Both the position numbers and the translations under genes were made by a program. DNA of 64,000 nucleotides from an uncultured Bacilli bacterium (GTDB lineage: Bacteria > Bacillota_I > Bacilli_A > RFN20 > CAG-288): NCBI GenBank assembly GCA_944332485.1, contig CALVKB010000002.1:11044-75043 (forward strand). Reading direction: 5' to 3'. Numbering within the stretch: position 1 is the first letter of the stretch; the number at the start of each line of letters is the position of its first letter. This document shows positions 4,523 through 41,121 of this stretch, in pieces. Under the pieces are notes generated by a model that made no database searches, was not told the origin of the DNA, and saw only the letters and a list, made by a program, of their open reading frames with translations.

Positions 4523-7006
4523 CTAAGTTAAACGTGGTTCTTCAAATTCAAATTTTTTTAAAATTATCTTCCTATATACGTAACTTTTATATTTAAGCAA
4601 AAATCTAAACAAAAACAACAATGAGACTACTAAAACAGGCACTGAAATTAAATAGATTAATATACTCATCCACATGTTGAAATTCAATGTGGTTACATCA
4701 ATTCCAGAGATTTCATATGTCTTATCTTTAAGCACAACAGGTCCGACAAAAACATATATAAAAGCAATTATGATAACTCCAAGAATTATCATCAAAGACC
4801 ATTTGTTAAATGGATAGGAAATTATAAACAACAATGTCCAATTAACAAACAACATACCTATGACAATCGAAGTATTAAGCCCACATGTAAGAACATCGTT
4901 TGCGTTTCCTATAACTGCAATTCCACTGAAGAAATTTGAATAATTCATCAGTAATCCCGCAACAACAACAAAGCACATTCCTATACACCCAGGGAAACTT
5001 TCAAATATCATCTTTTTATAAAAGTCCTTTTTAATCAAAGCATCGTTTGGTCTTAATGCTAGCAAAACACCAGGAACACCTATTCCACATACACTTATCA
5101 AATAAAGGTTGTTCGTTGTAAACATGGATGTGACATTCATCGTCAATCCAAGTATGTTGGTTAAAAATGTTATAAATATACTGAAGAAAGTTCTACTGAG
5201 AAACAAAGATGAACTAGCTTGAATATTATTGATGACTTGTCTTCCTTGTTTAACAACAAATGGCAGTCTGTTAAAATCGTTATCAAGCAAAGTGATGTCA
5301 GCTAAACTCTTTGCAGCTTGACTACCTTCTCCCATAGCAATTGCACAATCAGATTTTTTCAAAGCTAACAAATCGTTGACTCCATCACCTGTCATTCCAA
5401 CATAACTTCCATGCTTTTTCAATTCATCAACAATAACTTCTTTCTGTTCAGGTGAAACTCTGGCAAAAATAGAATATTTTAAAGCTAGTCTTCTTGTTTC
5501 CTCTAAATCGACATTTTGTAAACTAATGCCGTTTTTATATTCCATAAATCCGACTCTTTTAGCTATCTGTTGCACAGTTTGCAAATTATCTCCAGAGATA
5601 ATTTTCAAGTTCACTTCATTTTTATAAAACCATTCTAGAGTATTTTTAACATTCTTTCTCAACTCTTCCAAAATAACGATTACACTTATTAATTTTGTTT
5701 TATCATTATCTTTTTCAACAAAAAATAAAACTCGTTTGCCGCCATCTCTATACTTTGCTAATAAATTGGTAATTTCTTTATTATTTTTAAAATCAAATAC
5801 ATACTCAGGAGCACCTAATATGTATTCAACATTTTCAATCTTCATTTTGCTACATTTTGAAACTGAATCAAATTCACAAACTTCACTAACATTTAGATGT
5901 TCATATTCCTTATTAAAATAAATTTGTAAACTTTGCATCGTTAAATTAGCATCAGCAAAATTATGAACAAAATTATTCATGATATTTTCATAATTTCGAT
6001 CTTTTGACAAATATAAAATATTCTCAACTGTCAATTTATTGGTGGTTAACGTTCCTGTTTTATCCAAACAAAGACAGTCGACTCTCGCTAAGTTCTCTAT
6101 GCTGTAAAGATTATTCACCAAAGTTTTCTTTCTTGCTAAACTGATAACACCTTTTGCCAAAGCCACACTTGTGAGTAAAAACAACCCACTTGGAATCATT
6201 CCAACAACACCACCTGCTGTTTTACTAATGGCATAGGATAAAGGATTATCAAAAGCTAAAATAGGAGTATTGAAATCACCCTGTGGATGCAAAAAATAAT
6301 TATTATAAAAAGCCCAAATAGCTAAAGGTATCAAAATAATCGTTATTATTTTTATCAACTTATTCAATGTTTTGAAAATAGAGGAATTGATGGATTTATG
6401 TTTTTTTGTTTTGTTTTGTAAATTTGATATATATGTTCCATCACCAACTTTTGTTGTTAACATATATCCACTTCCTTTGATAACATATGACCCTGATAAC
6501 AAAAGATCTTCTTTTTTCTTATGCACATCATTGGCTTCACCAGTTAACATGCTCTCATCAACGAACACTTCACCTTGAAGCAAAACACCATCAACAACAA
6601 TCTGTTGCCCGCTTTTAATAAATAATACATCGTTCAAAACAACATCTTCTTTATCAATAGATGTTTTCTTATCATTTCTTACAACTTCAATTTTAGAATC
6701 CGAAACTAATTTCAATTTTTCAATCTGCTTTTTAGCTCTTATCTCTTGAATAATTGCAATCAAAGTATTCAAAACAACAATGACAAAAAAGAATGTCTGA
6801 AAATACCTTTGGCAGATGATCAAAACAATGAAAATTGCAAAAAGTAAAATGTTGAAAAATGTAAAGACATTTCTAAAAACAATATTCAAATAATCGTGTT
6901 GTTTTTTTAATTTAGTTTTATTTGTATTGCCACTTGCAATTTGTTTATAAACTTCTTCATCAGTCAAAGATTGAACTTTATTGCTTTTATAAGTGAACTG
7001 CATCAT
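4523..7006 (-). CDS. cation-transporting P-type ATPase (P2-type, PacL-like), paralog 2
   Basis: CLCLDKTGTLT phosphorylation site, TGDGVNDLLALK hinge, multiple TM helices. The actuator motif reads TGEA instead of TGES. Confidence 0.9.
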   Translation of the reverse strand: MMQFTYKSNKVQSLTDEEVYKQIASGNTNKTKLKKQHDYLNIVFRNVFTFFNILLFAIFIVLIICQRYFQTFFFVIVVLNTLIAIIQEIRAKKQIEKLKLVSDSKIEVVRNDKKTSIDKEDVVLNDVLFIKSGQQIVVDGVLLQGEVFVDESMLTGEANDVHKKKEDLLLSGSYVIKGSGYMLTTKVGDGTYISNLQNKTKKHKSINSSIFKTLNKLIKIITIILIPLAIWAFYNNYFLHPQGDFNTPILAFDNPLSYAISKTAGGVVGMIPSGLFLLTSVALAKGVISLARKKTLVNNLYSIENLARVDCLCLDKTGTLTTNKLTVENILYLSKDRNYENIMNNFVHNFADANLTMQSLQIYFNKEYEHLNVSEVCEFDSVSKCSKMKIENVEYILGAPEYVFDFKNNKEITNLLAKYRDGGKRVLFFVEKDNDKTKLISVIVILEELRKNVKNTLEWFYKNEVNLKIISGDNLQTVQQIAKRVGFMEYKNGISLQNVDLEETRRLALKYSIFARVSPEQKEVIVDELKKHGSYVGMTGDGVNDLLALKKSDCAIAMGEGSQAAKSLADITLLDNDFNRLPFVVKQGRQVINNIQASSSLFLSRTFFSIFITFLTNILGLTMNVTSMFTTNNLYLISVCGIGVPGVLLALRPNDALIKKDFYKKMIFESFPGCIGMCFVVVAGLLMNYSNFFSGIAVIGNANDVLTCGLNTSIVIGMLFVNWTLLFIISYPFNKWSLMIILGVIIIAFIYVFVGPVVLKDKTYEISGIDVTTLNFNMWMSILIYLISVPVLVVSLLFLFRFLLKYKSYVYRKIILKKFEFEEPRLT

Positions 7007-9920
7007 TTACCTTTCGAGGGGCTTTTTTAGTATTAGATTCACTTGAATCAGATTCATCATTATTCTCTTCTTCTTTGCTCTCTTCTGTATTTTCTTTTTT
7101 ACTTTTATCTTTCTTTTTACGTTTGAAAATGTTTCCTAAATATGGTCTATTTTTCTCGTTATTTTCTCTTTCTAAACGATTTAAATCATCTCTGAATAAA
7201 CTGAAGAAATAATCCAAACCTGTAGTCAATAAAGGCAAAGCGAAGACTAAAACAAAGAACATCAACCATGCAATCTTGTTCATCGTTGTGTAATCAAAAC
7301 CAACTAAGAATGAAGGCAATGTGAATGCACAAACGATTGTGGCTGCTAACATTGTGACAAATAATATCATTCGATAAATATTGAATGGAGTACATTGAAT
7401 GTAAAGCATACTCAATGATACAATCAACAAACCGAAAACTTCCAATGTTCTAACGCAATTATAACCAGTTTCAACACCGCCCAACTCAAAGAATCCGTTA
7501 ATATATAACAAACTGACACAACCGACCATAACCAACATCGCTATAGATCCTGGTAATGCTCTTAGAAGTGTGTTCTTCAAGAAATGACCTTTAATAAGAT
7601 TCTTGTTAGGTTGTAAAGCTAAGAAGAATGATGGAATACCAATTCCAAACACTTCCATCAAAATCAAGTTGCTTGGCTGGAATGGATAACTGACCATTTT
7701 ATTCGCCAAATTGATGATGATTATAAATAATGTCAAGCAAACGGTGAAGATAGTCTTCATCAAGAATAAAGATGAAGATCTTTGAACGTTATTGATAACC
7801 CTTCTACCTTCCTCAACAACTTTTGGCATACTGGCAAAATTACTATCAAGCAAGACTAAATGTGCGACATTTTTTGCTGCATCTGCACCAGCGGCCATAG
7901 CAATTGAACAATCAGAATTCTTCATGGCTAAGATATCATTGACACCATCACCAGTCATGGCAACAGTTTTACCATTTGCCTTAAGTGCTTGAACTAATGC
8001 TGCTTTTTGTTCAGGACTGACACGACCGAACACTGTGTATCTTGTTGCCAATTCCTTAGTTTCTTGAATGGAAACACCTTCCAAAGAAACACACTTATCA
8101 GCATCATTGACTCCACAGTTAGCTGCAATGTTACTAGCAGTATATGGATTATCACCGGAGATGATTTTAACGTCAACACCATTTTCATTAAACCATTTGA
8201 TAGTAGCAGGAGCTTCCTTACGGATATGATCCAACAAAATAAAGATTGCAATTGGTCTTGCAGAACCATCGAAACTTCCATCTTTGATGTAAGCTTCGGA
8301 TTTACAAAGCATCATAACACGATATCCAAGTTTCTGCCTTGTAGCGATCAATTTTTTAATCTCTTCATCATTACCTTTATAAACAAATTCCGGAGCACCT
8401 AATAAATATGTTCCGTTATTTTCAAATGAAACTGCTGAGAACTTTCTAGCACTTGAAAATGGGATGGTACTTATAGCACGGTATGTTGTTTTTAAAGGAT
8501 AATAATTTGCTAAAGCGATACTTGTTTGATTGGATTCCTCAAAGGAAGATAAATAGCTTCCCATGATGTCTTCCATCTTTTTGCTATTATCAAAGATAAC
8601 TACTTCACTAACTTTCATCGTACCATCGGTCAGTGTTCCAGTTTTATCTAAACACAGACAATTTGTACGTGCGAGCATTTCAATACAATATAACTCTTGA
8701 ACTAAGGTTTTTGATTTTGACAATCTTAAAATTCCAGCCGCTAAAGCCATGGAAGTTAAAAGGAACAAACCTGCAGGAATCATACCGACCAAGCTACCAG
8801 CGGTAGATGCGATAGCAACGGCAACCTTTCCAGTTTGACCCCATATTTCAGTGACATTAGCACTGCGGTAATTTATCCAAAATAAGATAATACCGATTGG
8901 AATAATGATTATGGATATAACTTTGATAATTCCGTTCAAACTTTTAACTAACTCACTTTTCGGTTTTGAATATTTTTTTGCTTGTTGTTGCAAAGCGTTG
9001 GCATAACAAAGAGAACCGACTCTTTCAACTTGACATGTACAAGAACCAGAGACAACGAATGATCCAGCTAAAACCATATCACCGACTTTCTTTTTAACAG
9101 CTAAACTTTCACCTGTCAAAAGTGATTCATTAACTTCGATTTGACCAAATTTAACAATTGCATCAGCACCGATTTGATTACCAGTTGAAAGTAACATTAT
9201 GTCATCCAAAACTAATTCTTCAGTTGGGATGTTCAACATTTCACCATCACGGATAACCTTGGCATTAGGTGCTGTAACCAATTTTAATTTATCGATTGTT
9301 TGTTTAGCTCTGACTTCTTGAATAATTCCGATGACAGTATTTGCAATAGCAATAATCATGAAAAAGCAATCTGATATCTTTCCAACAGAAAGCAAAGCGA
9401 CTGCTATTGCAAGCAAAAGAATATTGAAGAATGTGAATACATTCGTATATATAATTTTCCAGTAAGTTTTAGTTCCAGAATTTGGCTGTTTATTTGTTAA
9501 ATCGTCCTTAATTCTTTGTTCAACATCACTTTTCTTCAAGCCTATTTCAATTTCAGGAAGATATCTAACTGCATTTAAAAGCTTATTTTTCTCTTTGTTG
9601 GAAAGTTCCTCTTCACTTTCTTTCTTCTGTTTTTTTCTAGCGTTTTTCTCAAGTTTTCGCAAAACTTTCTCTTCCATCTCAGCTTTATTAGCTGCTAAAG
9701 AATCATCATTTGAATTGATGGTTTTATTTTTAACAGTTTTTGTTTTTGATAAACTACCTTTTTTATTCTTCTCTTTAGCCTCTTTCAAAGCTTTAGCAAT
9801 GTCCTCTTTACTCATAACTTGAGTGGATTTTATTTGACTTTGCTCCTGATTTTTCAAGTTTTGTTTAACTACTTTGACCTCGTTGGTACTTTCAGCAGAA
9901 TTGTTTGTTTTCTCTTCCAT
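6987..9920 (-). CDS. cation-transporting P-type ATPase (P2-type, PacL-like), paralog 1, with a ~150-aa K/E-rich N-terminal extension
   Basis: TGES, CLCLDKTGTLT, MTGDGVNDILAM. It overlaps the downstream paralog by 20 nt. Charged low-complexity tails at both termini. Confidence 0.9.
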   Translation of the reverse strand: MEEKTNNSAESTNEVKVVKQNLKNQEQSQIKSTQVMSKEDIAKALKEAKEKNKKGSLSKTKTVKNKTINSNDDSLAANKAEMEEKVLRKLEKNARKKQKKESEEELSNKEKNKLLNAVRYLPEIEIGLKKSDVEQRIKDDLTNKQPNSGTKTYWKIIYTNVFTFFNILLLAIAVALLSVGKISDCFFMIIAIANTVIGIIQEVRAKQTIDKLKLVTAPNAKVIRDGEMLNIPTEELVLDDIMLLSTGNQIGADAIVKFGQIEVNESLLTGESLAVKKKVGDMVLAGSFVVSGSCTCQVERVGSLCYANALQQQAKKYSKPKSELVKSLNGIIKVISIIIIPIGIILFWINYRSANVTEIWGQTGKVAVAIASTAGSLVGMIPAGLFLLTSMALAAGILRLSKSKTLVQELYCIEMLARTNCLCLDKTGTLTDGTMKVSEVVIFDNSKKMEDIMGSYLSSFEESNQTSIALANYYPLKTTYRAISTIPFSSARKFSAVSFENNGTYLLGAPEFVYKGNDEEIKKLIATRQKLGYRVMMLCKSEAYIKDGSFDGSARPIAIFILLDHIRKEAPATIKWFNENGVDVKIISGDNPYTASNIAANCGVNDADKCVSLEGVSIQETKELATRYTVFGRVSPEQKAALVQALKANGKTVAMTGDGVNDILAMKNSDCSIAMAAGADAAKNVAHLVLLDSNFASMPKVVEEGRRVINNVQRSSSLFLMKTIFTVCLTLFIIIINLANKMVSYPFQPSNLILMEVFGIGIPSFFLALQPNKNLIKGHFLKNTLLRALPGSIAMLVMVGCVSLLYINGFFELGGVETGYNCVRTLEVFGLLIVSLSMLYIQCTPFNIYRMILFVTMLAATIVCAFTLPSFLVGFDYTTMNKIAWLMFFVLVFALPLLTTGLDYFFSLFRDDLNRLERENNEKNRPYLGNIFKRKKKDKSKKENTEESKEEENNDESDSSESNTKKAPRKVNDAVHL

Positions 9921-10083
9921 AATAAATCTCCTGAATCGTGTGATTATTGTTCAATTTTCACTTATTTTATTATAAACAATAAGAATATTGTTTAAGTATT
10001 ATCAATAAAATAAAGCTTGTTTTTCATTTGATAATAATTGAACTTTAAATTTTGTAAAATAAATAAAGCTCAAGGTAAGGAAA

Positions 10084-10743
10084 ATGAGAAATCTAAGAAT
10101 TTGTTTTGATTCAACACTCGATAAAGATTTTATGGAAGGCGTGATTGATTCATTGAATTTCAATGGTCTTTCAAAAGAACTTTTCGTCATCTGTGGAGGT
10201 GGTAATAATTTTTATCTCACTTTGAAATTAAACAGCAAGAAAATTTATAAAGAAGAGATTGATTACTACAAATCAATACCTAACACTATCACTAAAGAAG
10301 AACCTTACTTTTTTGTTTGCTTAACTGAGATTAAAGCCAATGAAAACATCAAAAAACCTCAGTATTTTTTCTTGAATATGAAGGAGAAAAATTACTGTTT
10401 GAAACTTTTGATGGCTGGTAAATTGTACGTTGAAAATAAATCTTTGATAGGTAATTACTATTACTGCTCCCCTCGCTACACCGATATAATCGGTATGTTT
10501 CCGATGTTCTCCGATTACACAAAATTTCTTGGAATAATCGTCTGCAAAAAAGAAAATGTCAATTATATAAAAGAATTATTGAAAAATACCCCTTGTTTCA
10601 TAATGCTGCTTGTTCAAGAAGATTCTACATATGAAAGTGGGGTCAAACAAGCTTCAGTTTTAGCAAAATTTATCAAATCAAACAAACTTTTAAAAAATGT
10701 GAACTCATTACAAAATACCATCGTTGAAAATTACGATTTATAG
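10084..10743 (+). CDS. hypothetical cytoplasmic protein (219 aa)
   Basis: Intact ORF with RBS AAGGAAA, no recognisable motif; first gene of a tightly packed five-gene + strand operon. Confidence 0.5.
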   Translation: MRNLRICFDSTLDKDFMEGVIDSLNFNGLSKELFVICGGGNNFYLTLKLNSKKIYKEEIDYYKSIPNTITKEEPYFFVCLTEIKANENIKKPQYFFLNMKEKNYCLKLLMAGKLYVENKSLIGNYYYCSPRYTDIIGMFPMFSDYTKFLGIIVCKKENVNYIKELLKNTPCFIMLLVQEDSTYESGVKQASVLAKFIKSNKLLKNVNSLQNTIVENYDL

Positions 10744-10751
10744 GAGATTAT

Positions 10752-11498
10752 ATGGAAACTCTTTTGAAAGATTACTTAAGTAAAATTCGTGACGAAAATT
10801 CAAACTACTTCGCTGGAAGTGCCTGTTTCTTAATCGAATACCTCGAATTATCAAAAATCAAATACATGTTCAATAATATCACATTGCCATCATTGGATAA
10901 AACAAGATATTATGTATTAAATATGATCGATGAAGATAGTAAATTATTCGATTTAACATCTTCAAATAATAAAGATAAGATGGTTGAAGATTATCAAATT
11001 GTAACATCATCAGTTGATAATATTCTAGGGCTGTATAATTCCTGCAAAGAATGTTCTACTATCATTAACAACTACCCTTATCTTTTGGAAGCTAATATCT
11101 ATTTGAAATCCCTTATCAACGATTCTTTACTTGAACATCCATATGATCTTAGCGACATTTCAGTCAACATTGATTTACCTTGCTTCACAACTGATGTGAC
11201 AAAATTAACAAAAAAGTATATCGCTTTAACTACCATAGCATTATTTGAAAAACTCGTAAAAAGAAAAAGAAGATTTAAAAATGTCGATAACTTACCTTTA
11301 GATGAAACACTGATATTGACTGATAAAATCTTAACTAATAGCAGTTATACAACTGAAGAACTTAACAAATTGAAAAAATATCTTTTGATAATTCAAGGAA
11401 AGATAAAATCATCTATTAAGAAAGATTATCTTCTCTGCTACAAAATCTTAAAACAAATCTTACAGGAGGAAGAATACAATGCACAATTATTTTTCTAA
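10752..11498 (+). CDS. hypothetical cytoplasmic protein (248 aa)
   Basis: Intact ORF with RBS TAGGAGA; no recognisable motif. Confidence 0.5.
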   Translation: METLLKDYLSKIRDENSNYFAGSACFLIEYLELSKIKYMFNNITLPSLDKTRYYVLNMIDEDSKLFDLTSSNNKDKMVEDYQIVTSSVDNILGLYNSCKECSTIINNYPYLLEANIYLKSLINDSLLEHPYDLSDISVNIDLPCFTTDVTKLTKKYIALTTIALFEKLVKRKRRFKNVDNLPLDETLILTDKILTNSSYTTEELNKLKKYLLIIQGKIKSSIKKDYLLCYKILKQILQEEEYNAQLFF

Positions 11499-11814
11499 AT
11501 TTGAAACATTGATCGATTTACAAAACTCAAAATACGCTCAAGCTTATCGTTATAAAAATAACACTTTTTACATTGAAAACAATTTCAATGAAGTTTTCAC
11601 CAGATTAGAAAAGATCCTTCCTGAAGAATTTGAATTAATTAAGAAGGAACTATTCAATCAGATTGAAAAAAACAAATTAGTTGTATTTTGTATAAATGAA
11701 GAATACACTCCAATATACAGACCAGATGCAATATTTTTGACATTGATTGATTTAGCGAATAAAGTCAACGTCGATATTGAAAACAAATCTCGTGGAAGCG
11801 ATTATGGCGACTAG
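11479..11814 (+). CDS. hypothetical protein (111 aa)
   Basis: Intact ORF with RBS CAGGAGGAAG; overlaps both neighbours. Confidence 0.45.
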   Translation: MHNYFSKFETLIDLQNSKYAQAYRYKNNTFYIENNFNEVFTRLEKILPEEFELIKKELFNQIEKNKLVVFCINEEYTPIYRPDAIFLTLIDLANKVNVDIENKSRGSDYGD

Positions 11815-13306
11815 AAAAACTTTTAAAAAAGTTACTGTTTGTATATTACTATCTTTCACTTTGCAAAGTTGTTCTCTTTTTGATAAACAAGTTTTAGTTG
11901 ATATTCCGCAGGATGTTTTAAATTTACCATTAAAACAAGCCAAACAAGAAAATCTGCTTGAAAACGAATTTAATCCAACAACTGTCGATAATAAGCTGTA
12001 TAACAAAATTAAGGATTCAAATGAAATCTTGGTTTTACCATATGAATATTTAGAACAAACTGCACCAATAAATTCATATTCAGCTATAAACTTTGCTTTC
12101 AATTCACAAACCGAAATATACGTTGGAGTAAAGCCGTATTTTCAAAACACATCAAACAATTTAAACTTAGATTTTAAAATTGCTACTGATGCAAATAACA
12201 ATTATTATAATTCTAATTTTAAATTTGTTGAAACCGCACAGAAATTTATTGATGATAATAAATCCGATTTACTTTTAACTTATTTAATTTATGATGGTTT
12301 GAACAATTACAAAACTTTAACCAATACTAACTTAGAAGAACTATACGATTCAAATAATGATGGATATATCGATTCAATCTTCTTCACGCCTTTTTTAAAT
12401 CATTTTTCAAAATCCACATTTTCTGAAACTTTGAAAAATCTTTTAACTTCTAAAACATTCACTTACACACCAACTCAAGCCGATCAAATCAAATCTGAAA
12501 TAGAAGAATACACAAATAGAACTTTCGATTTCACAATCTCTACTGCCTCCTTTTCTTCGTTTTATTATTTAACTGAAGTTAATGATTTGTATAGGGTGAA
12601 TGGTCTCTCCTGTTACAATCATCAATTTATCTATGAAATTGCCAGACAATTCAATATGTCGAATTTACAAGGAAACGATAAAACAAATCCGCTTGGCATG
12701 AACTTTTTATCCTCTGGGATGGTTGGAGATATCGATGCATTCAATAAAATTAAAATGGGTTTAACAACTCCCTATATTATCAACAGTGAAGGCAAGTATG
12801 AATTGAAACAAGATTCAAATTACGTATATTTAATTCCAAAAAAACTCAACTACAATATCAATTCAATTTACGATGAGTATCTTTTAATCACATATTACGA
12901 TGGAATGAAAAATCCAAATATTCATAAAGACACTGGATTTTACTCAAATTATGTGCTGAATAACAAATCTGGGTTCATCGTATTTGCCTGTGACAATAGA
13001 CTCCAATATTTAAAGAACAATCTTTATCAAACCTTAAATACTCAAACAGATAATTACGATCCAAACACAGAATATGTCAATGTTACTTCACAGAAAGTTG
13101 AAAATAAAAATTACTTGGTTCAAATTCTAGATGAAAATAACGACAACTCTATTCTTAAAAATGGCATAATTAAAGACTCTGATTTCTTCATTGATAGAAC
13201 ATCTTTGTTTGTAAATACATTCACTAATTTTACATTTTCAACTGAAATTGACTACAAATTGTACTTTCAAGAAGCAAACGAAATATTTTATTTATACTTA
13301 AAATAA
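11804..13306 (+). CDS. lipoprotein, catalytically degenerate paralog of the downstream M6-like metalloprotease lipoprotein
   Basis: Start revised to MATRKTFKK...LSFTLQSCSLF (lipobox). It shares the DSNNDGYIDSIFF motif with the next gene, but the zinc motif is degenerate (FIYEIARQF versus FIHETGHML). Confidence 0.6.
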   Translation: MATRKTFKKVTVCILLSFTLQSCSLFDKQVLVDIPQDVLNLPLKQAKQENLLENEFNPTTVDNKLYNKIKDSNEILVLPYEYLEQTAPINSYSAINFAFNSQTEIYVGVKPYFQNTSNNLNLDFKIATDANNNYYNSNFKFVETAQKFIDDNKSDLLLTYLIYDGLNNYKTLTNTNLEELYDSNNDGYIDSIFFTPFLNHFSKSTFSETLKNLLTSKTFTYTPTQADQIKSEIEEYTNRTFDFTISTASFSSFYYLTEVNDLYRVNGLSCYNHQFIYEIARQFNMSNLQGNDKTNPLGMNFLSSGMVGDIDAFNKIKMGLTTPYIINSEGKYELKQDSNYVYLIPKKLNYNINSIYDEYLLITYYDGMKNPNIHKDTGFYSNYVLNNKSGFIVFACDNRLQYLKNNLYQTLNTQTDNYDPNTEYVNVTSQKVENKNYLVQILDENNDNSILKNGIIKDSDFFIDRTSLFVNTFTNFTFSTEIDYKLYFQEANEIFYLYLK

Positions 13307-13343
13307 AACATTAGTAAAATATATCTACCTGGAGGAAGATACT

Positions 13344-15044
13344 ATGAAGAAAAAAATAATCAAATCTTTTTTCACTCTTGGAATATTAATTTCTGCCTGT
13401 TCAACAACAAGTTGTTCTTTTATTGCTCAAATACTTTCTGATATTTCAGCAAACAACTCATTCAGCAGCAATGATAATTCTTATGTAAAAACAACACATA
13501 ACAGATCGAGTTATTCAAAAACTGGAGTTTACAATGCAAATTTACCAACCGCACCTAACTCCTATAATTTGAGTGATATAAAATACAAAGGAAATTATTT
13601 AACAAATCATGATCTTGGATTGATGAACGATTTAAATTACGCACCATCAACAGGAGACACAAGATTTTTAGTAGTTCCAGTTATTTTCAATCAATCAACC
13701 AATTATCAAGGTGATTACTCCCAAAATTTCGTCTCTAAATTGGATGATGTCTTTTTCAGTGAGACATCTATAACTGACAACTGGGAATCAGTTCATTCAT
13801 TCTATGATAAATCCAGTTATGGATTATTAAATATCAATGGTGAAGTTGCAGAACCGTATTATATAAACAAATCATTTGATGAAGTTGTGCGTTCATTCAG
13901 AAATGAAAACGATGCGTACAATTATGTTTCAAGCTTAGTCAACACTATTGCTAAAAAATATAAGAGTCAAGTATCCAACTTTGATTCAAACGATGATGGT
14001 TGCTTTGATGGCATATGGTTAGTTTACAATGTCAATGATTATTACAATCAAAGAAGAGAATATTCAAACTATGATGCTGATATTCTCTGGGCCTACACAT
14101 CATATAACACCGCTGACTCATTAGCTCCTATTTATGCTTGGGCAAGTTACGATTTTATGCAACACACAAGTGAATCGACATCAGGTGCAATAAAAACATA
14201 TACAAAAGATGCTCACACTTTCATTCATGAAACTGGTCATATGTTAGGATTAGATGACTACTACAATTACGATTCAACAGCTGAAGCATATAACTCACCT
14301 GTTGGTGGTCAATCGATGATGGATGCCAATATCGGAGATATGGATCCACATAGTAAGTTTTTACTTGATTGGATCAATCCAAAAGTTGTAAACAGCGTTG
14401 GTCGTTTTACTTTGAAATCATTCTCTGAAACAGGTCAAACTGTCATCATTCCAAGTACAGCTGGTTTTGATAATACTGTTTTTGATGAGTATTTGATGTT
14501 GGCTGTCTATGATCCAAGTGATGAATTGCAAAAGGAAGATTCAACTTACGTTTATGAAGGTGTTTCTTTACCAACTGAAAGAGGCTTACAAGTTTTCTAT
14601 GTTAACTCCAAATTAGGTTTGATCAAAGAAGCTGTTTACGGTAATGATTTGTATTACATCAATGCATCATATTTGGATTCATCTGATATTACTGACACGT
14701 TAGTTAAATCCAACAATATGGTACAAATTATCAATTCCAATTCACCAAGCTGGTCCTACAATCCACCAATTTCAAATCTTCAAGAGAATGTAAATAAACT
14801 TGAACTTATCTCAAAAGATTACAATATCCGTAGTTCATCTTACGCTCAATATTCTAATTTAAATAATGCTTATGCATATCCAAGTTATGCAAACAGCGAT
14901 CTTTACCAAAAAAATGATAGTTTCATGTCTTTGAAAGTTGGTAGAAGAAAGAATGTATTCTCATTTGGTGAAATTGCCTATAGTTTCAGTGTCGTTGATG
15001 ATGATGGTGAAACCATGACAATTGAAGTGACACAAGTATCTTAA
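13344..15044 (+). CDS. lipoprotein zinc metalloprotease (HEXXH, M6/M64-like)
   Basis: Signal peptide + lipobox (LISACSTTSC); FIHETGHMLGLDDYYNYD resembles the InhA/M6 HEYGHNLGLPDEY and M64 HEXXHXXGXXDEY motifs. Confidence 0.6.
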   Translation: MKKKIIKSFFTLGILISACSTTSCSFIAQILSDISANNSFSSNDNSYVKTTHNRSSYSKTGVYNANLPTAPNSYNLSDIKYKGNYLTNHDLGLMNDLNYAPSTGDTRFLVVPVIFNQSTNYQGDYSQNFVSKLDDVFFSETSITDNWESVHSFYDKSSYGLLNINGEVAEPYYINKSFDEVVRSFRNENDAYNYVSSLVNTIAKKYKSQVSNFDSNDDGCFDGIWLVYNVNDYYNQRREYSNYDADILWAYTSYNTADSLAPIYAWASYDFMQHTSESTSGAIKTYTKDAHTFIHETGHMLGLDDYYNYDSTAEAYNSPVGGQSMMDANIGDMDPHSKFLLDWINPKVVNSVGRFTLKSFSETGQTVIIPSTAGFDNTVFDEYLMLAVYDPSDELQKEDSTYVYEGVSLPTERGLQVFYVNSKLGLIKEAVYGNDLYYINASYLDSSDITDTLVKSNNMVQIINSNSPSWSYNPPISNLQENVNKLELISKDYNIRSSSYAQYSNLNNAYAYPSYANSDLYQKNDSFMSLKVGRRKNVFSFGEIAYSFSVVDDDGETMTIEVTQVS

Positions 15045-15145
15045 TAAAAAATATTAAATAATTTATTAAAATAACTCAGATTCACTGAGAGGTACCCCAA
15101 ATCCTAGACATTAGGAAAGGGGTACATTTCACGACTCTGATTTTT

Positions 15146-15940
15146 TTATACTTCAGCAATGATATATGAATAATTATCTTTAGATTTTAACTTGAAAATA
15201 TAATCTTCTAATTTTTGAGCAATATGAGATAACTTTCTATATTTGAAACATCTTCTCAAACTGGTCAATTTTACAAAATCACTCACTCCATCGGAGCAGA
15301 TGAATATATATTTTAGTTTATCTTTCATCTCTTTTATATTATATACAAAACTGTGAATTTTCTCTTCGTTGAAGTGCTCATTTCCTAATGCATTGAAAAT
15401 GATATTCTTGTTATATGGCATTTTCTCAATATCGCTTCTTTTTATGATATTCTTTGAGAAAAGATAATTAGCCAAACTATCGTCGTAACTTATCTGTTCG
15501 ACTGGGTTATTTTCATAAACAAAATAAACTCTCGAATCACCAACGTTGAAAACATATATATAATTTTTTAAAAATAGAACACCTGCTATTGTTGTTCCTG
15601 AGAATCTGCTTTGTTCCAAATTACAAAGTTTGTTTGATATGTATTCATTGCAATTTATAATAAATTGATTGATCTCCTCCAAACTTTTGTACTTCATCAT
15701 CTTTTCATAATTCATCAAGGAAAAATCACCACCGTAACTTGAAGCAAGCTCTCCATATTTTTCACCACCCATACCATCCAAAATGGCGAGATAGTTGAAA
15801 TCTTCACTATAAAGAACAGTGTTTATTTCATCTTTAAATAAAAGATTATTAACAACTACACAATCTTCATTTTTGTTTCTTACAAAACCTTTCGATGTTC
15901 TAATTGTCGCTTTTTTCATAAAATTCGCTTGTCGTTCCAA
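15146..15940 (-). CDS. PP2C-family serine/threonine protein phosphatase
   Basis: Motifs RNKNEDCVVV, ILDGMGGEKYGELAS, FICSDGVSDF and a C-terminal DN motif. It overlaps the end of fruK. Confidence 0.8.
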   Translation of the reverse strand: MERQANFMKKATIRTSKGFVRNKNEDCVVVNNLLFKDEINTVLYSEDFNYLAILDGMGGEKYGELASSYGGDFSLMNYEKMMKYKSLEEINQFIINCNEYISNKLCNLEQSRFSGTTIAGVLFLKNYIYVFNVGDSRVYFVYENNPVEQISYDDSLANYLFSKNIIKRSDIEKMPYNKNIIFNALGNEHFNEEKIHSFVYNIKEMKDKLKYIFICSDGVSDFVKLTSLRRCFKYRKLSHIAQKLEDYIFKLKSKDNYSYIIAEV

Positions 15941-16839
15941 ACTTTGAACATCTTTAAACTATCTTTGAAGCATTGTTCTAAATCCACGTTTTCAAGTACT
16001 GCACGATCTTTAGTTATATTTTTTAAAATCATAGCTAAGATCGCATCCCCATTACCGTATTCACATTTCAATTTCTCTATTTGTTCAACATCAATTTTCT
16101 TAAATGAATTTGAAGTTGTTAAACTGTAAAAGCAAGCTTCGGCACCATTCGTTATGAAGAAATTTGTACGTTTGAGAATATTCTTATCAAAGATATTATT
16201 AAGAATATTAAGTAACTCTTGGTCATTCTTATTTTCCTTTGATAAGTCGTAGGCTTTCAAAATTTCATCCATATTAACTTTGACTAAAAATGGTGTTGTA
16301 TCCTCAATTATGTCTTTCAAGCAATAATTGGTGTCGACGATCACATCGCATTTATTTTTCACATATTTACATGTTTTATAAATTAAATCTGGTTTCTCAC
16401 AACTTCCTGTTAAAACCAAAATATCCTCTTTTTTAATACTGAGTTCATCTATCGATTTTTTCACAATTGAAAAATCGATTGTGAAAGGTTTTTGATTTAT
16501 CTCAAAGAGAAATTTTCTATCACAATTTCTAATTTTATAATTACATCTTATATCAGTTATATCATCGATTTTGACACACTTGAAAGTTTCCTCAACTTTC
16601 TGTTTTGAATATTTATCTATCAATTTTTCCTTGTATGATAATTTGTAATTATCAAAAATCAAAGTTTTGAATTCACCATATAAATCGTATAAAACATTTG
16701 ATACATTGATAGCTTTTCCACCTAAACAGACCTTTTTATCTGTGTAAATATTTGGAAACAAAGAAGATGTTGATAAATTTTGCTCACTGAGTGTTATATC
16801 AATGTCTAAACAACTGGAAAATCCAACGATGTAAATCAT
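15916..16839 (-). CDS. fruK: PfkB-family sugar kinase, 1-phosphofructokinase / tagatose-6-P kinase-like
   Basis: N-terminus MIYIVGFSSCLDIDITL (FruK/LacC start MIYTVTLNPSIDY), CLGGKAINVS (GGKGxN) and C-terminal GNGDAILAMIL (GAGD). Confidence 0.7.
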   Translation of the reverse strand: MIYIVGFSSCLDIDITLSEQNLSTSSLFPNIYTDKKVCLGGKAINVSNVLYDLYGEFKTLIFDNYKLSYKEKLIDKYSKQKVEETFKCVKIDDITDIRCNYKIRNCDRKFLFEINQKPFTIDFSIVKKSIDELSIKKEDILVLTGSCEKPDLIYKTCKYVKNKCDVIVDTNYCLKDIIEDTTPFLVKVNMDEILKAYDLSKENKNDQELLNILNNIFDKNILKRTNFFITNGAEACFYSLTTSNSFKKIDVEQIEKLKCEYGNGDAILAMILKNITKDRAVLENVDLEQCFKDSLKMFKVWNDKRIL

Positions 16840-16842
16840 ATA

Positions 16843-17628
16843 TTATTCCTTACTTTCCTGTTTTAAACTTAAATGTTTAATCAAATTCACATATTTTGCA
16901 GGAATCTCATCGGTTATTAAACAAATCTTGTTGAATGATGAGAAAGTTGCACTGGAAATATTATCAAATTTATTGTGACTTGCTAATATGTAAACGGAGT
17001 AACATTTTGATATTGCCTTCATTTTTATACTGGCTTCGGATGGATCTGGCGTTGTAAAACCACTGGTTGGATGAATACCATTTGTTCCGAAAAATCCCAA
17101 ACTGAAGTTGAACTTATCTAAAAAATCCAAAGCATAACCACCAATATACGCATTAGTTGTCAGTTTCAATTCACCACCAGTTACATATACTCTATGTCCT
17201 AACTCAGACAACTTAATCGCTAAGTTTGGAGAATTGGTTACAAAATAAGTATTGCTAAGTAAAGGCAAATACGGAATCATACTTGCAACAGTTGTACTAG
17301 CATCCAAATAAACGCACATGTTCGATTTTACAAGTTTACTGGCGTATCTTGCGATGGCATTTTTAATATCGATATCAGTCTCTTCTCTTTCAAAATATTC
17401 CTTATCGACACGATCGAATGTAATCTCACCAAGATATCCTCCGATACTTGTTGCACCTCCGTGAATTTTCACAAGCTTGTGCTCTTTGTTCAATCTATTA
17501 AGATCACGGCGTATCGTCGATTCAGAAATATCAAAAAACTTCGCTAGTTCTTCGACTGACGCTCTTTGATTTTTCGCTTTTTGGATGTACTCTATTATTT
17601 TTTCATCTCTGATAAAATTAATTGCCAT
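16843..17628 (-). CDS. DeoR-family transcriptional regulator (FruR/LacR-like)
   Basis: HTH VEELAKFFDISESTIRRDLNRL plus a DeoR C-terminal sugar-phosphate-binding domain; located upstream of fruK. Confidence 0.75.
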   Translation of the reverse strand: MAINFIRDEKIIEYIQKAKNQRASVEELAKFFDISESTIRRDLNRLNKEHKLVKIHGGATSIGGYLGEITFDRVDKEYFEREETDIDIKNAIARYASKLVKSNMCVYLDASTTVASMIPYLPLLSNTYFVTNSPNLAIKLSELGHRVYVTGGELKLTTNAYIGGYALDFLDKFNFSLGFFGTNGIHPTSGFTTPDPSEASIKMKAISKCYSVYILASHNKFDNISSATFSSFNKICLITDEIPAKYVNLIKHLSLKQESKE

Positions 17629-17631
17629 AAA

Positions 17632-18084
17632 CTACCCACCACAAACATTATTTTCTGTTTTATGCTCTTTAATAAATTTGATGATATTTTCAACATCAAC
17701 ACGAATTTGATTTAAATCTTCATTTTGAATGCTGGCTTCTTCCATCGGACAGATAACATCTTTTTTGACATAAATGTAATCAATCATGTTCTCGTATTCA
17801 ACTTCAACATTGTTCTTTGTCAAAAGTTCATAACCTCTTTTTGTTATATTTGTTGCAACAACTTTTTTAATATGACCTAAGATCAAGAAAGTTGCAGCTG
17901 CACCACCAATTTCATAACAATAACAAGTGGCATTATCAAGCAATTCAAGTTTCTTATGAAAAAGAAAATTGAATGGTCTTATACCATAGGAGTTATCATT
18001 GAAAACTTCCTTACCATCAGAATCTAAAATTACACATGTTTCATCTTTTTTCAATTTCATATTACTTAACCTCTTTAAAATCAT
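17632..18084 (-). CDS. hypothetical protein (150 aa)
   Basis: Intact ORF; no motif recognised. Confidence 0.4.
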   Translation of the reverse strand: MILKRLSNMKLKKDETCVILDSDGKEVFNDNSYGIRPFNFLFHKKLELLDNATCYCYEIGGAAATFLILGHIKKVVATNITKRGYELLTKNNVEVEYENMIDYIYVKKDVICPMEEASIQNEDLNQIRVDVENIIKFIKEHKTENNVCGG

Positions 18085-39729: not shown

Positions 39730-41121
39730 ATGGAAGAAGAAATCAACTCATTGGATCTTATTTGGGAAAATGTAACAAATCACTTGCAGGAAATTTTCGG
39801 ACGTCCATCATACGAAGCATATATTGAAAATATATGCCATCTTATGAAAATTGAGAAAAACAACGCCTATGTTGTTTGTGATCAAAAAGTTTCACTTAAG
39901 ATTCTCTCTCAGGATAGTCAGCTTGATAAATTCAAAAAAGCATTTGAGGAAGCAACTGGAACAAATTACAACGTTTTATTTTATTCTCAAAAAGATTACG
40001 TCAATTTAGACAAAAAGAAAGAGAAGAAAGAAACAAGCAAACCGGATCTTTTTGATCAGTACATCATCAGCCCAAAAGATACTTTTGATACTTTCGTGGT
40101 TGGTCAATCGAATAAACAAGCTTATTTAGCTTGTAATTTGCTTTGCGAAGATAAAGTTACATTTAACCAATTATTCATATATGCCGATTCTGGATTAGGA
40201 AAAACACACTTACTTTCCGCAATTTACAATAAATATAGGGAAGTTCATCCTGATAAGAAGATTAAATACGTTTGTATTAATGATTTTATAGAATTGTACA
40301 TACGATACGTCAGAGAGGAACAGAATAAAACAGGTGATGCAAAAGTAAGTGATATAAAAGATTATTTTGTTGATTTGGATTGTGTTTTATTCGATGATAT
40401 TCAATTTTTAACTGCTAAAAGAAAAACCCAAGAAGTTTTCTTCGATATATTTAACAAATTGCAGATGAGAAATGTCATAGTTGTTATGACATCAGATTGC
40501 TCACCGGATCATATTCAAGATTTAGATAAAAGATTAGTATCAAGATTTTCCTCTGGTTTATCCTGTTTTATCAAGATTCCAGAAAGATCTACAATGATCG
40601 ATATTCTCAAAAAGAAGATTGAACTTAACGGATTAGATATAAACATGTTTCCAGATGAAGTTTTGGATTACATCGCTTCTAAAAATTCCAACAACGTCAG
40701 ATTGTTGGAAGGTGCTTTGAATAGACTATTATTCTTATTAGCTTTACATAAGGATGTAGATAAAGTTGATATGAAATTTGTCCGTATGGCTTTTGAAGAT
40801 AACCGAAGTTACTCCAAAGAGCTTGATCAAGATCATGTTTTGGATGTTGAGGATATCATCTCCGAAGTTGCAAATCAGTTCAATTTGACAATAGGGCAAC
40901 TTAAATCGAAAGTTAGAACCTCACAGATTTCTTACGCACGACAAATCGCTATGTATTTATGCCGAGATCTTTTAAATGAAAGTTTGAACGATATAGGAAG
41001 AGTTTTTGGAAAAGACCATTCCACCGTTTTGGATGCTTGTAAAAAGATAACAAAAAGGATGGAAGAAGATGTCAATTTGAAAAAGACAATCAAGAAGTTG
41101 AAGGATAAATTGAAAAAATAA
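39730..41121 (+). CDS. dnaA: chromosomal replication initiator protein DnaA
   Basis: AAA+ Walker A YADSGLGKTHLL, Walker B VLFDDIQF, sensor and box VII regions, and a C-terminal DNA-binding domain (IAMYLCRDLLNESLNDIGRVFGKDHSTV). Confidence 0.95.
   Translation: MEEEINSLDLIWENVTNHLQEIFGRPSYEAYIENICHLMKIEKNNAYVVCDQKVSLKILSQDSQLDKFKKAFEEATGTNYNVLFYSQKDYVNLDKKKEKKETSKPDLFDQYIISPKDTFDTFVVGQSNKQAYLACNLLCEDKVTFNQLFIYADSGLGKTHLLSAIYNKYREVHPDKKIKYVCINDFIELYIRYVREEQNKTGDAKVSDIKDYFVDLDCVLFDDIQFLTAKRKTQEVFFDIFNKLQMRNVIVVMTSDCSPDHIQDLDKRLVSRFSSGLSCFIKIPERSTMIDILKKKIELNGLDINMFPDEVLDYIASKNSNNVRLLEGALNRLLFLLALHKDVDKVDMKFVRMAFEDNRSYSKELDQDHVLDVEDIISEVANQFNLTIGQLKSKVRTSQISYARQIAMYLCRDLLNESLNDIGRVFGKDHSTVLDACKKITKRMEEDVNLKKTIKKLKDKLKK

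Follow-up and report, generated by a model that had tools for sequence, protein, structure and literature searches.

Are five closely packed genes of an uncultured low-GC gut bacterium of the Bacilli one dedicated machine, or do they form a composite in which only some members work together? I analyzed a window of 64,000 nucleotides of its DNA, in which genes A to E (Table 1) had been described, from the letters alone, as an undescribed surface-protease system: two metalloprotease-like lipoproteins, one with and one without a zinc site, served by three small cytoplasmic proteins. The reading preferred here, to which I assign a probability of roughly 55%, is a lineage-specific and probably co-transcribed five-gene cluster that would be composite rather than one dedicated machine, with D and E as its core.

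Is the cluster a single transcription unit? The five open reading frames lie on the plus strand, with gaps of 8 nt between A and B and 37 nt between D and E, and with overlaps of 20 nt between B and C (11479-11498) and 11 nt between C and D (11804-11814, given the start of D at ATG 11804). The coordinates, overlaps and gaps of the original prediction were all reproduced, except that its length of 509 aa for the upstream lipoprotein is that of the longest TTG ORF; ATG 11804, which gives 500 aa, was adopted as the start of D because the alignment of orthologs supports it. Purine-rich stretches resembling Shine-Dalgarno sequences were found upstream of all five genes. No terminator-like site was found on the plus strand inside 10084-15044, while the hairpin 3' of gene E has an RNA folding energy of -28.9 kcal/mol (z of -5.3 versus shuffles) and is followed by UUUUUUU. 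With one strand, short gaps or overlaps, and a terminator only past the last gene, A to E are probably one operon, co-transcription being predicted from this layout. Each of the five genes occurs only once in the window, and no Rfam match at E <= 1 was found in the region 9800-15400.

The presumed promoter region separates gene A from a gene on the minus strand for a P-type ATPase of 977 aa. Only weak matches to a sigma-70-like promoter were found in this region (9921-10083), no more than in shuffled sequence. It contains a perfect 9-bp palindrome, TAAACAATA-N4-TATTGTTTA, at 9973-9994, which was not found in relatives; inverted repeats are not distinctive in such AT-rich DNA. A conserved operator upstream of A was considered and rejected, since the intergenic regions of four lineages do not align.

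Table 1. Positions of the genes and sequence features of the A-E locus, numbered from the first nucleotide of the window.
Feature	Position	Strand	Remark
Divergent intergenic region, presumed promoter of A-E	9921-10083	.	163 nt, AT-rich
Gene A	10084-10743	+	219 aa
Gene B	10752-11498	+	248 aa
B conserved motif AGSACFL	10812-10832	+	
B conserved motif CKEC	11043-11054	+	
B conserved motif NLPLDET	11289-11309	+	
Gene C	11479-11814	+	111 aa
C disordered tail KSRGSDYGD	11785-11811	+	follows a compact alpha/beta domain
Gene D	11804-13306	+	500 aa from ATG 11804
D lipobox LQSC	11861-11872	+	
D DxNxDGxxD loop, retained	12347-12373	+	residues 182-190
D degenerate zinc site YEIARQFNMSN	12632-12664	+	
Gene E	13344-15044	+	566 aa
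E DxNxDGxxD loop	13983-14009	+	residues 214-222
E zinc site HETGHMLGLDD	14226-14258	+	intact HEXXHXXGXXD
Long hairpin then U-run, terminator-like	15076-15148	+	between convergent E and PP2C-phosphatase genes

What kind of protein is E? The zinc site claimed for it, FIHETGHMLGLDDYY, is complete (H295, E296, H299, G302, and D305), and H295, E296, H299, and D305 are invariant in an alignment of 30 family sequences. At least 946 similar proteins were found; HE[TS]GH is present in all of the best 120 of these, and a simple regex scan detected a lipobox in about 110 of the same best 120. The M6 domain model TIGR03296 matches E at an E-value of 4e-22, with residues 122-368 (247 residues) on profile positions 3-250 of 286, at a score of 79.4 bits that is under the curated cut-off of 110.8, and PF05547 does not match E itself. 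The relative P0008 reaches 108 bits with TIGR03296 and passes PF05547 with 35.3 bits (cut-off 22), and the close relatives of E are labelled 'M6 family metalloprotease-like' or match PF05547. Because E falls below the curated M6 thresholds while P0008 is nearer to or above them, it is defensible, on sequence grounds, to regard E as a member of an M6-like divergent subfamily. The M6 relationship first proposed is upheld at this level, for E by the match to TIGR03296 and for D by the profile comparison given below.

Both D and E begin with a signal peptide of the bacterial lipoprotein type, as had been predicted: a basic N-terminus leads into a hydrophobic stretch that ends at a lipobox cysteine. 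The lipobox of E is ISAC or TTSC (...LGILISAC/STTSC), and its C24 aligns with the invariant cysteine of the family. The N-terminus of D, MATRKTFKKVTVCILLSFTLQSC, carries an atypical Q at position -2, and the lipobox of the orthologs reads LSSC or LTSC. An LGT-domain gene is present in two related Bacilli loci, L011 and L013.

Has D lost its zinc site? At the place homologous to the zinc site of E, D has FIYEIARQFNM (Y277, E278, R281, and N287), with the changes of His to Tyr and His to Arg that were first pointed out. It was revealed that the first His is replaced by Tyr and the second by Arg or Lys in all four orthologs (YEIAR, YEIAK, YEISR, and YETFK), each of which is of full length with an intact ORF. 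Their third-ligand positions are N, D, N, and D. Direct searches with M6 and zincin models gave no match to D. D matches E by BLASTP (E 9e-15 over 278 aa, 24% identity) and matches the E-family profile by hhalign with a probability of 100% and an E-value of 2.7e-39 over 415 columns, keeping the whole domain architecture, Ca-type loop included. D is thus a full-length paralog of E, at a similarity far beyond chance. This D-S-N-x-D-G-x-x-D loop, common to D and E, accounts for the shared DSN block of the original prediction. Because its zinc site is replaced, D should be called an M6-like homolog and not an M6 peptidase. Since both histidines are replaced in each of the four orthologs that have sequence, D is, as judged from these sequences, a conserved pseudo-protease, as was suspected.

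How widely is the gene order conserved? An exhaustive phmmer search against 1.84e9 representatives placed A in just five clusters, and A and B are restricted to the same five species-level clusters, with A always directly 5' of B. The check on gene order in relatives that had been proposed came out positive: A-B-C-D-E is the order found in each lineage that carries A and B on a contig long enough to judge it, that is, in four of the five clusters (the window, L003, L004/5/8, and L016/17), while the fifth (L015) has A-B-C only. When metagenomes were scanned with the alignment of B, the L008 contig alone was found again. The downstream flanks differ among lineages, with a PP2C gene on the minus strand, PfkB, peptidase C1, or UDG-serS, and the P-type ATPase gene pair, divergent and upstream of A, is as well conserved in position as A to E. 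Identity across lineages is 30-49% for D and 35-55% for E, a similar rate. In the outgroup L020, a B-like ORF, C, and a single M6 lipoprotein predicted to be active are adjacent in otherwise different surroundings. This suggests that D arose by tandem duplication, and because L020 has a B-like ORF, C, and only one lipoprotein, of the active type, the duplication would be later than the split from L020.

A has no match in Pfam, NCBIfam, PADLOC, or PDB sequences and a single weak match in PHROGs (E 0.025, function not known), and no transmembrane segment was found in it. B is predicted to be an all-helical cytoplasmic protein, restricted to this lineage. None of A, B, and C has a hydrophobic segment (maximum KD(19) <= 1.35) or a Pfam or NCBIfam match. 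By these searches, which gave no match of fold or family, A and B appear to be genuine orphans of narrow range. Thus, the description of three orphans holds for A and B, confined to five clusters, but not for C, whose family counts at least 1759 clusters. For A to D and gene X, an origin in a defence system or a phage was considered and rejected, as PADLOC and PHROGs gave no meaningful match.

The proteins of the C family, which come from metagenome-assembled genomes of uncultured Bacilli and Erysipelotrichaceae, are uniform in size (about 112 aa) and end in a disordered KSRGSDYGD tail that is invariant across the family; the earlier statement that C has no recognisable motif was therefore mistaken. 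C itself has a full-length match to the family profile, a length of 111 aa, and an intact tail. The representative of its cluster, P0127, which is 98% identical to it, gives an E-value of 4.7e-45 against a family profile that includes C of the window. Two independent members, P0121 and P0122, align with 96% of C at 29% identity and give about 2.5e-50. No Pfam model, NCBIfam model, or solved structure matches the family. At six further loci from uncultured Bacilli (L009-L013 and L021), the C-family gene lies after gdpP-rplI-dnaB-MBL-rlmH or thereabouts, and none of A, B, D, and E was found near it. In contrast, C in the clade of the window has B on one side and the gene of an M6-like lipoprotein on the other, and it belongs to a divergent branch (29-40% identity) with the same tail. 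A housekeeping role for the family is suggested by where its genes usually lie, after rlmH. Gene C exposes a large unnamed protein family with an invariant disordered C-terminal peptide.

Could D still be an enzyme, through a remodelled site made of Glu278, His273, and perhaps Tyr277, or by binding another metal? Because the catalytic Glu is kept and NHQFIYE is the most conserved stretch of the D orthologs, a non-canonical activity is conceivable; the upstream His is likewise invariant, and the third-ligand Asp is still present in two of the four orthologs. However, the HEXXH histidines kept in the 120 best family members and in the 30-sequence alignment are lost in all D proteins, the third-ligand position alternates between N and D, and D is left unscored by every M6 or zincin model, all of which makes a catalytic D very unlikely. 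Or are D and E neighbors through tandem duplication only, with D binding, say, a nutrient or a host ligand? Tandem copies are common in the E family, both members of the L018 pair are predicted to be active, and D, at 24% identity, is more distant from E than E is from family members of other genomes. On the other hand, D and E have not been separated: about 36 nt lie between them in three of the four lineages and about 150 nt in L003. The architecture of D is also whole over its 415 aligned columns. I regard the absence of pairing as unlikely.

It is doubtful that A to E are one functional unit, as first envisaged, in which A, B, and C serve only the D/E system from the cytoplasm, be it as regulators, chaperones, or maturation factors. 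The invariant order despite rearranged downstream flanks, the stop codons that overlap the next start at B/C and C/D, a narrow phyletic range common to A, B, and D, and the B-like ORF, C, and M6 lipoprotein retained side by side in L020 all speak for such a unit. The L020 arrangement is the sole support from beyond the five clusters. Against it, members of the C family normally follow rlmH with no protease, and those of the E family (at least 946 clusters) occur singly or in tandem without A to C, as in the unrelated contexts of the two E-family neighborhoods inspected. No motif in A to C hints at a protease-related role, and lipoprotein export is not known to require more than the Sec pathway, Lgt, and LspA. 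Moreover, because A and B are confined to the same five species-level clusters and the upstream ATPase pair is equally well conserved, their linkage is inseparable from plain synteny, which alone explains it. Thus, the case for A to C acting on the D/E proteases is weak. It is quite unlikely that B, C, and the M6-like lipoproteins are a functional module in which C, with A and B, controls the production, export, or activity of the surface protease and pseudo-protease; if true, gut Bacilli with reduced genomes would have an undescribed kind of protease system that reaches from the cytoplasm to the surface. The tail of C resembles a docking peptide under such a reading. The shared range of A, B, and D, which are always adjacent (for D, within the loci examined), and the recurrence of B, C, and an M6 lipoprotein in L020 would also fit a real link between cytoplasmic proteins and lipoproteins.

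The preferred reading, a composite cluster, may be put as follows. D and E would be the functional core. From its family membership, E is most likely a membrane-anchored surface zinc metalloprotease that degrades extracellular proteins or peptides. D would be a tandem duplicate, made after the separation from L020, that lost both zinc-binding histidines and kept its ORF; since it is kept intact despite this loss, it may now work without catalysis, most likely, on the cell surface, as a subunit of E that binds substrate or acts as its partner. C would be a relocated member of a widespread small-protein family whose usual home is downstream of rlmH. A, B, and C would share a tightly coupled message with D and E, with the stop codon of C overlapping the start of D.

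How does the D/E pair compare with known systems? Uncultured low-GC Bacilli of the gut have M6-like lipoproteins in abundance, which, to my knowledge, are unstudied in them. Peptidase family M6 (Pfam PF05547, NCBIfam TIGR03296) includes InhA of Bacillus thuringiensis/cereus and PrtV of Vibrio cholerae, which are larger, secreted, and processed proteins with extra C-terminal domains. I know of no pseudo-enzyme partner described for InhA or PrtV, and D beside E would be, as far as I know, the first in the M6-like family. E shares with these peptidases the HEXXHXXGXXD motif and an upstream DxDxDG-type loop, but it is a lipoprotein of about 550 aa from a divergent subfamily, whereas PrtV is a secreted metalloprotease of the M6 family (PMC2613228). 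The findings leave the major open questions unchanged; D/E may serve as a simple case in which to test how surface proteases of bacteria acquire subunits that lack catalysis.

In Clostridioides difficile, the dead paralogs CspC and CspA are sensors or regulators of the active CspB of the same family (PMC6636752, PMC7200643). The Csp proteins are, however, subtilisin-like serine proteases in spore germination, a context that the organism with D/E does not show. The M16B heterodimers, the alpha and beta subunits of the mitochondrial processing peptidase, and FtsH/FtsHi resemble D/E in that a paralog lacking the zinc motif is kept by selection beside or with an active copy. M16 pairs are frequently encoded by tandem genes. 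The FtsHi proteins are FtsH homologs without the zinc-binding motif that have important functions (PMC8197885). The putative D/E pair differs from these metalloprotease pairs in fold and family, being M6-like, lipid-anchored, and extracytoplasmic.

The best-supported reading, with a probability of roughly 0.55, is that genes A to E form a composite, probably co-transcribed cluster. E would be an active M6-like protease exposed as a surface lipoprotein, and D would be a conserved paralog that has lost catalysis and most probably serves for binding or as a partner subunit. C would belong to a widespread family of small proteins and have been relocated, and A and B would be clade-specific cytoplasmic proteins. 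The five genes have gaps of 8 and 37 nt and overlaps of 20 and 11 nt, and each is preceded by a Shine-Dalgarno-like sequence. No terminator-like site was found on the plus strand inside the unit; in the gap that separates E from the PP2C gene converging on it, a long hairpin (dG -28.9 kcal/mol, z -5.3) leads into a U-run. The GC content (about 28-31%) is the same as that of the surroundings, and an Rfam search of the region gave no match. The tightly packed, operon-like layout of the original prediction was thus recovered, except that its upstream lipoprotein of 509 aa is the longest ORF from TTG 11777, over which the ortholog alignment favours the ATG start of D.

Features of the five-gene region and of compared loci (L004, L016, L020: loci from other genomes)
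Locus	Feature	Position	Strand	Description
Window	gene A	10084-10743	+	219 aa
Window	gene B	10752-11498	+	248 aa
Window	gene C	11479-11814	+	111 aa
Window	gene D	11804-13306	+	500 aa from ATG 11804
Window	gene E	13344-15044	+	566 aa
Window	P-type ATPase	4523-7006	-	827 aa
Window	P-type ATPase	6987-9920	-	977 aa
Window	palindrome	9973-9994
Window	hairpin	15076-15148
Window	TM1506-like/DeoR/PfkB/PP2C block	15146-18084	-
Window	DnaA ORF	39730-41121		Bac_DnaA, E-value 1e-42
L004	TM1506-like-to-PP2C block	13115-16141	+
L004	gene 5' of A	5486-6610
L016	gene 5' of A	5443-6519
L020	gene 1			SIR2 gene
L020	gene 2			155-aa ORF; matches N-terminal half of B profile (E-value 5e-5); motif SEYYCGSACFL
L020	gene 3			124-aa ORF; B-like KTASLKTDY motif, by eye only
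L020	genes 2 and 3	8078-8912		B-like region
L020	gene 4			C
L020	gene 5			3 nt after C; single 524-aa M6-like lipoprotein, HETGH intact; 37% identical to E, 24% to D
L020	two adjacent ORFs	10916-17751		1134 and 1143 aa, Cys-rich

The NCBIfam M6 domain TIGR03296 matches residues 122-368 of E (E-value 4e-22) with 79.4 bits, short of the 110.8 set as the curated cut-off; E itself has no match to Pfam PF05547. Since E lies under the curated thresholds, its proper label is an M6-like divergent lipoprotein subfamily. A database search found at least 946 homologs, several of which carry PF05547 or the label "M6 family metalloprotease-like". HE[TS]GH is present in all of the best 120, and a simple regex scan found a lipobox Cys in about 110 of these. 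H295, E296, H299, and D305 are invariant in a 30-sequence alignment, giving the extended motif HEXXHXXGXXD.

D has no direct match to any M6 or zincin model. By sequence comparison, it is a full-length paralog of E (BLASTP E-value 9e-15); when the profile of the D orthologs was compared with that of the E family in hhalign, the probability was 100% and the E-value 2.7e-39 over 415 columns. The zinc site of D reads YEIARQFNMSN. In all four D orthologs, the first zinc His is replaced by Tyr and the second by Arg or Lys (YEIAR, YEIAK, YEISR, YETFK), the third-ligand position being N, D, N, and D. As the defining zinc site is absent, the name M6 peptidase is not appropriate for D. D keeps the catalytic Glu, an upstream His, and the DxNxDGxxD loop, and it is very unlikely that D is still active with a remodelled site. 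At 30-49% identity, the D orthologs have diverged about as far as those of E (35-55%) and are all intact; D has therefore been kept by selection as a probable pseudo-protease. The pairing originally predicted, a mutated pseudo-protease paralog followed by an M6-like lipoprotein with a full zinc site, thus agrees with the profiles and alignments.

Exact-sequence look-ups and locus scans found the A-E order in L003 (E 55% identical to that of the window), in L004-L008 and L014 (an "uncultured Bacillales bacterium" human-gut MAG; 39-42%), and in L016 and L017 (35%). Only A-B-C is visible on the short contig L015. An exhaustive phmmer search with A and B against 1.84 billion representatives found just five clusters per protein; thus, A and B are known from no lineages other than these and the window. 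On the 3′ side, the window has PP2C on the opposite strand, whereas L003 has PfkB and DeoR, L004 peptidase C1, and L016 UDG-serS. The A-to-E block is intact despite these rearranged flanks, but so is the upstream, divergently transcribed ATPase pair, and therefore conserved order by itself is no proof of a functional unit.

The ATPase genes, overlapping by 20 nt, adjoin the cluster wherever a contig extends upstream of A, which is the case in four lineages. Both products score under every subtype-specific NCBIfam cut-off, and the larger has a long N-terminal extension rich in Lys/Glu. The divergent promoter region contains a perfect palindrome of 9 bp (TAAACAATA AGAA TATTGTTTA; spacer of 4 nt); no counterpart was observed at the equivalent place in relatives, and it may be a chance occurrence in AT-rich DNA. 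L004 and L016 have an extra gene of 358-374 aa directly 5′ of A, without a family match; the window and L003 lack it, and it was thus lost or gained within the clade. The TM1506-like-to-PP2C block is reversed relative to the protease cluster between the window and L004, and the peptidase C1 gene next after E in L004 is missing in the window, which places an inversion or deletion breakpoint right after E. Farther away, the cumulative GC skew has its minimum near 38 kb, and the probable site of the chromosomal replication origin is at about 38-39.7 kb, some 25 kb from the cluster.

A and B match nothing in Pfam, NCBIfam, PADLOC, or PDB sequences; PHROGs gave a single weak match to A (E-value 0.025) and none to B, and neither has a membrane segment. 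In contrast, a profile search with C retrieved at least 1759 clusters of proteins almost uniformly 112 aa long from Bacilli and Erysipelotrichaceae MAGs. C thus belongs to a large family that has no name and is structurally unassigned; hence, of the three proteins first regarded as orphans, only A and B are so. The exact C-terminal end VEDKSRGSDYGD occurs in 105 of 120 listed family members. The AF2 model of C (pLDDT 89.9) is confident except for this tail, for which disorder is predicted.

In four loci (L009, L010, L012, and L021), gdpP-rplI-dnaB-MBL-rlmH ends with the C homolog, which in some cases overlaps rlmH by 4 nt and is thereby coupled to it; L011 and L013 have the homolog a few genes further on in the same gdpP-rlmH region. 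A, B, D, and E are absent from the vicinity in all six loci. The L009 and L010 contigs carry typical low-GC Bacilli genes (dnaB, rlmH, C family) in bins of Prevotella sp. CAG:755 and Bacteroides uniformis, which is probably mis-binning. E-family genes also occur without A-C, alone between yceD and mraZ in L019 and as two active tandem copies in L018. These distributions count against the "dedicated cytoplasmic accessory factors" of the original prediction.

That A-C nevertheless serve the D/E pair as one integrated system is unlikely, though the translational coupling of C and D and the outgroup locus L020 (GCA_964427595.1) speak for it. There, the gene order places B-C-M6 adjacency before the five-species clade, with a C 40% identical to that of the window. 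A real B-C-protease module, with the invariant C tail as a docking peptide, is very unlikely. L020 has a single M6-like gene, and D would accordingly have arisen later by tandem duplication and then lost the zinc site. That D and E have no partnership at all is quite unlikely. The two B-like ORFs of L020 indicate either that B is a fusion or that the L020 gene was split. The large ORFs 3′ of its lipoprotein gene have no Pfam match and no obvious signal peptide.

M16 heterodimers are pairings of an active and an inactive metalloprotease and resemble the dead/live pairing of D and E, although they belong to another family. The same holds for FtsH/FtsHi (PMC8197885) and the Csp pseudoproteases (PMC6636752, PMC7200643); a complex of D and E is hypothetical. 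E is homologous to M6 peptidases such as InhA and PrtV (PMC2613228) and would work like them.
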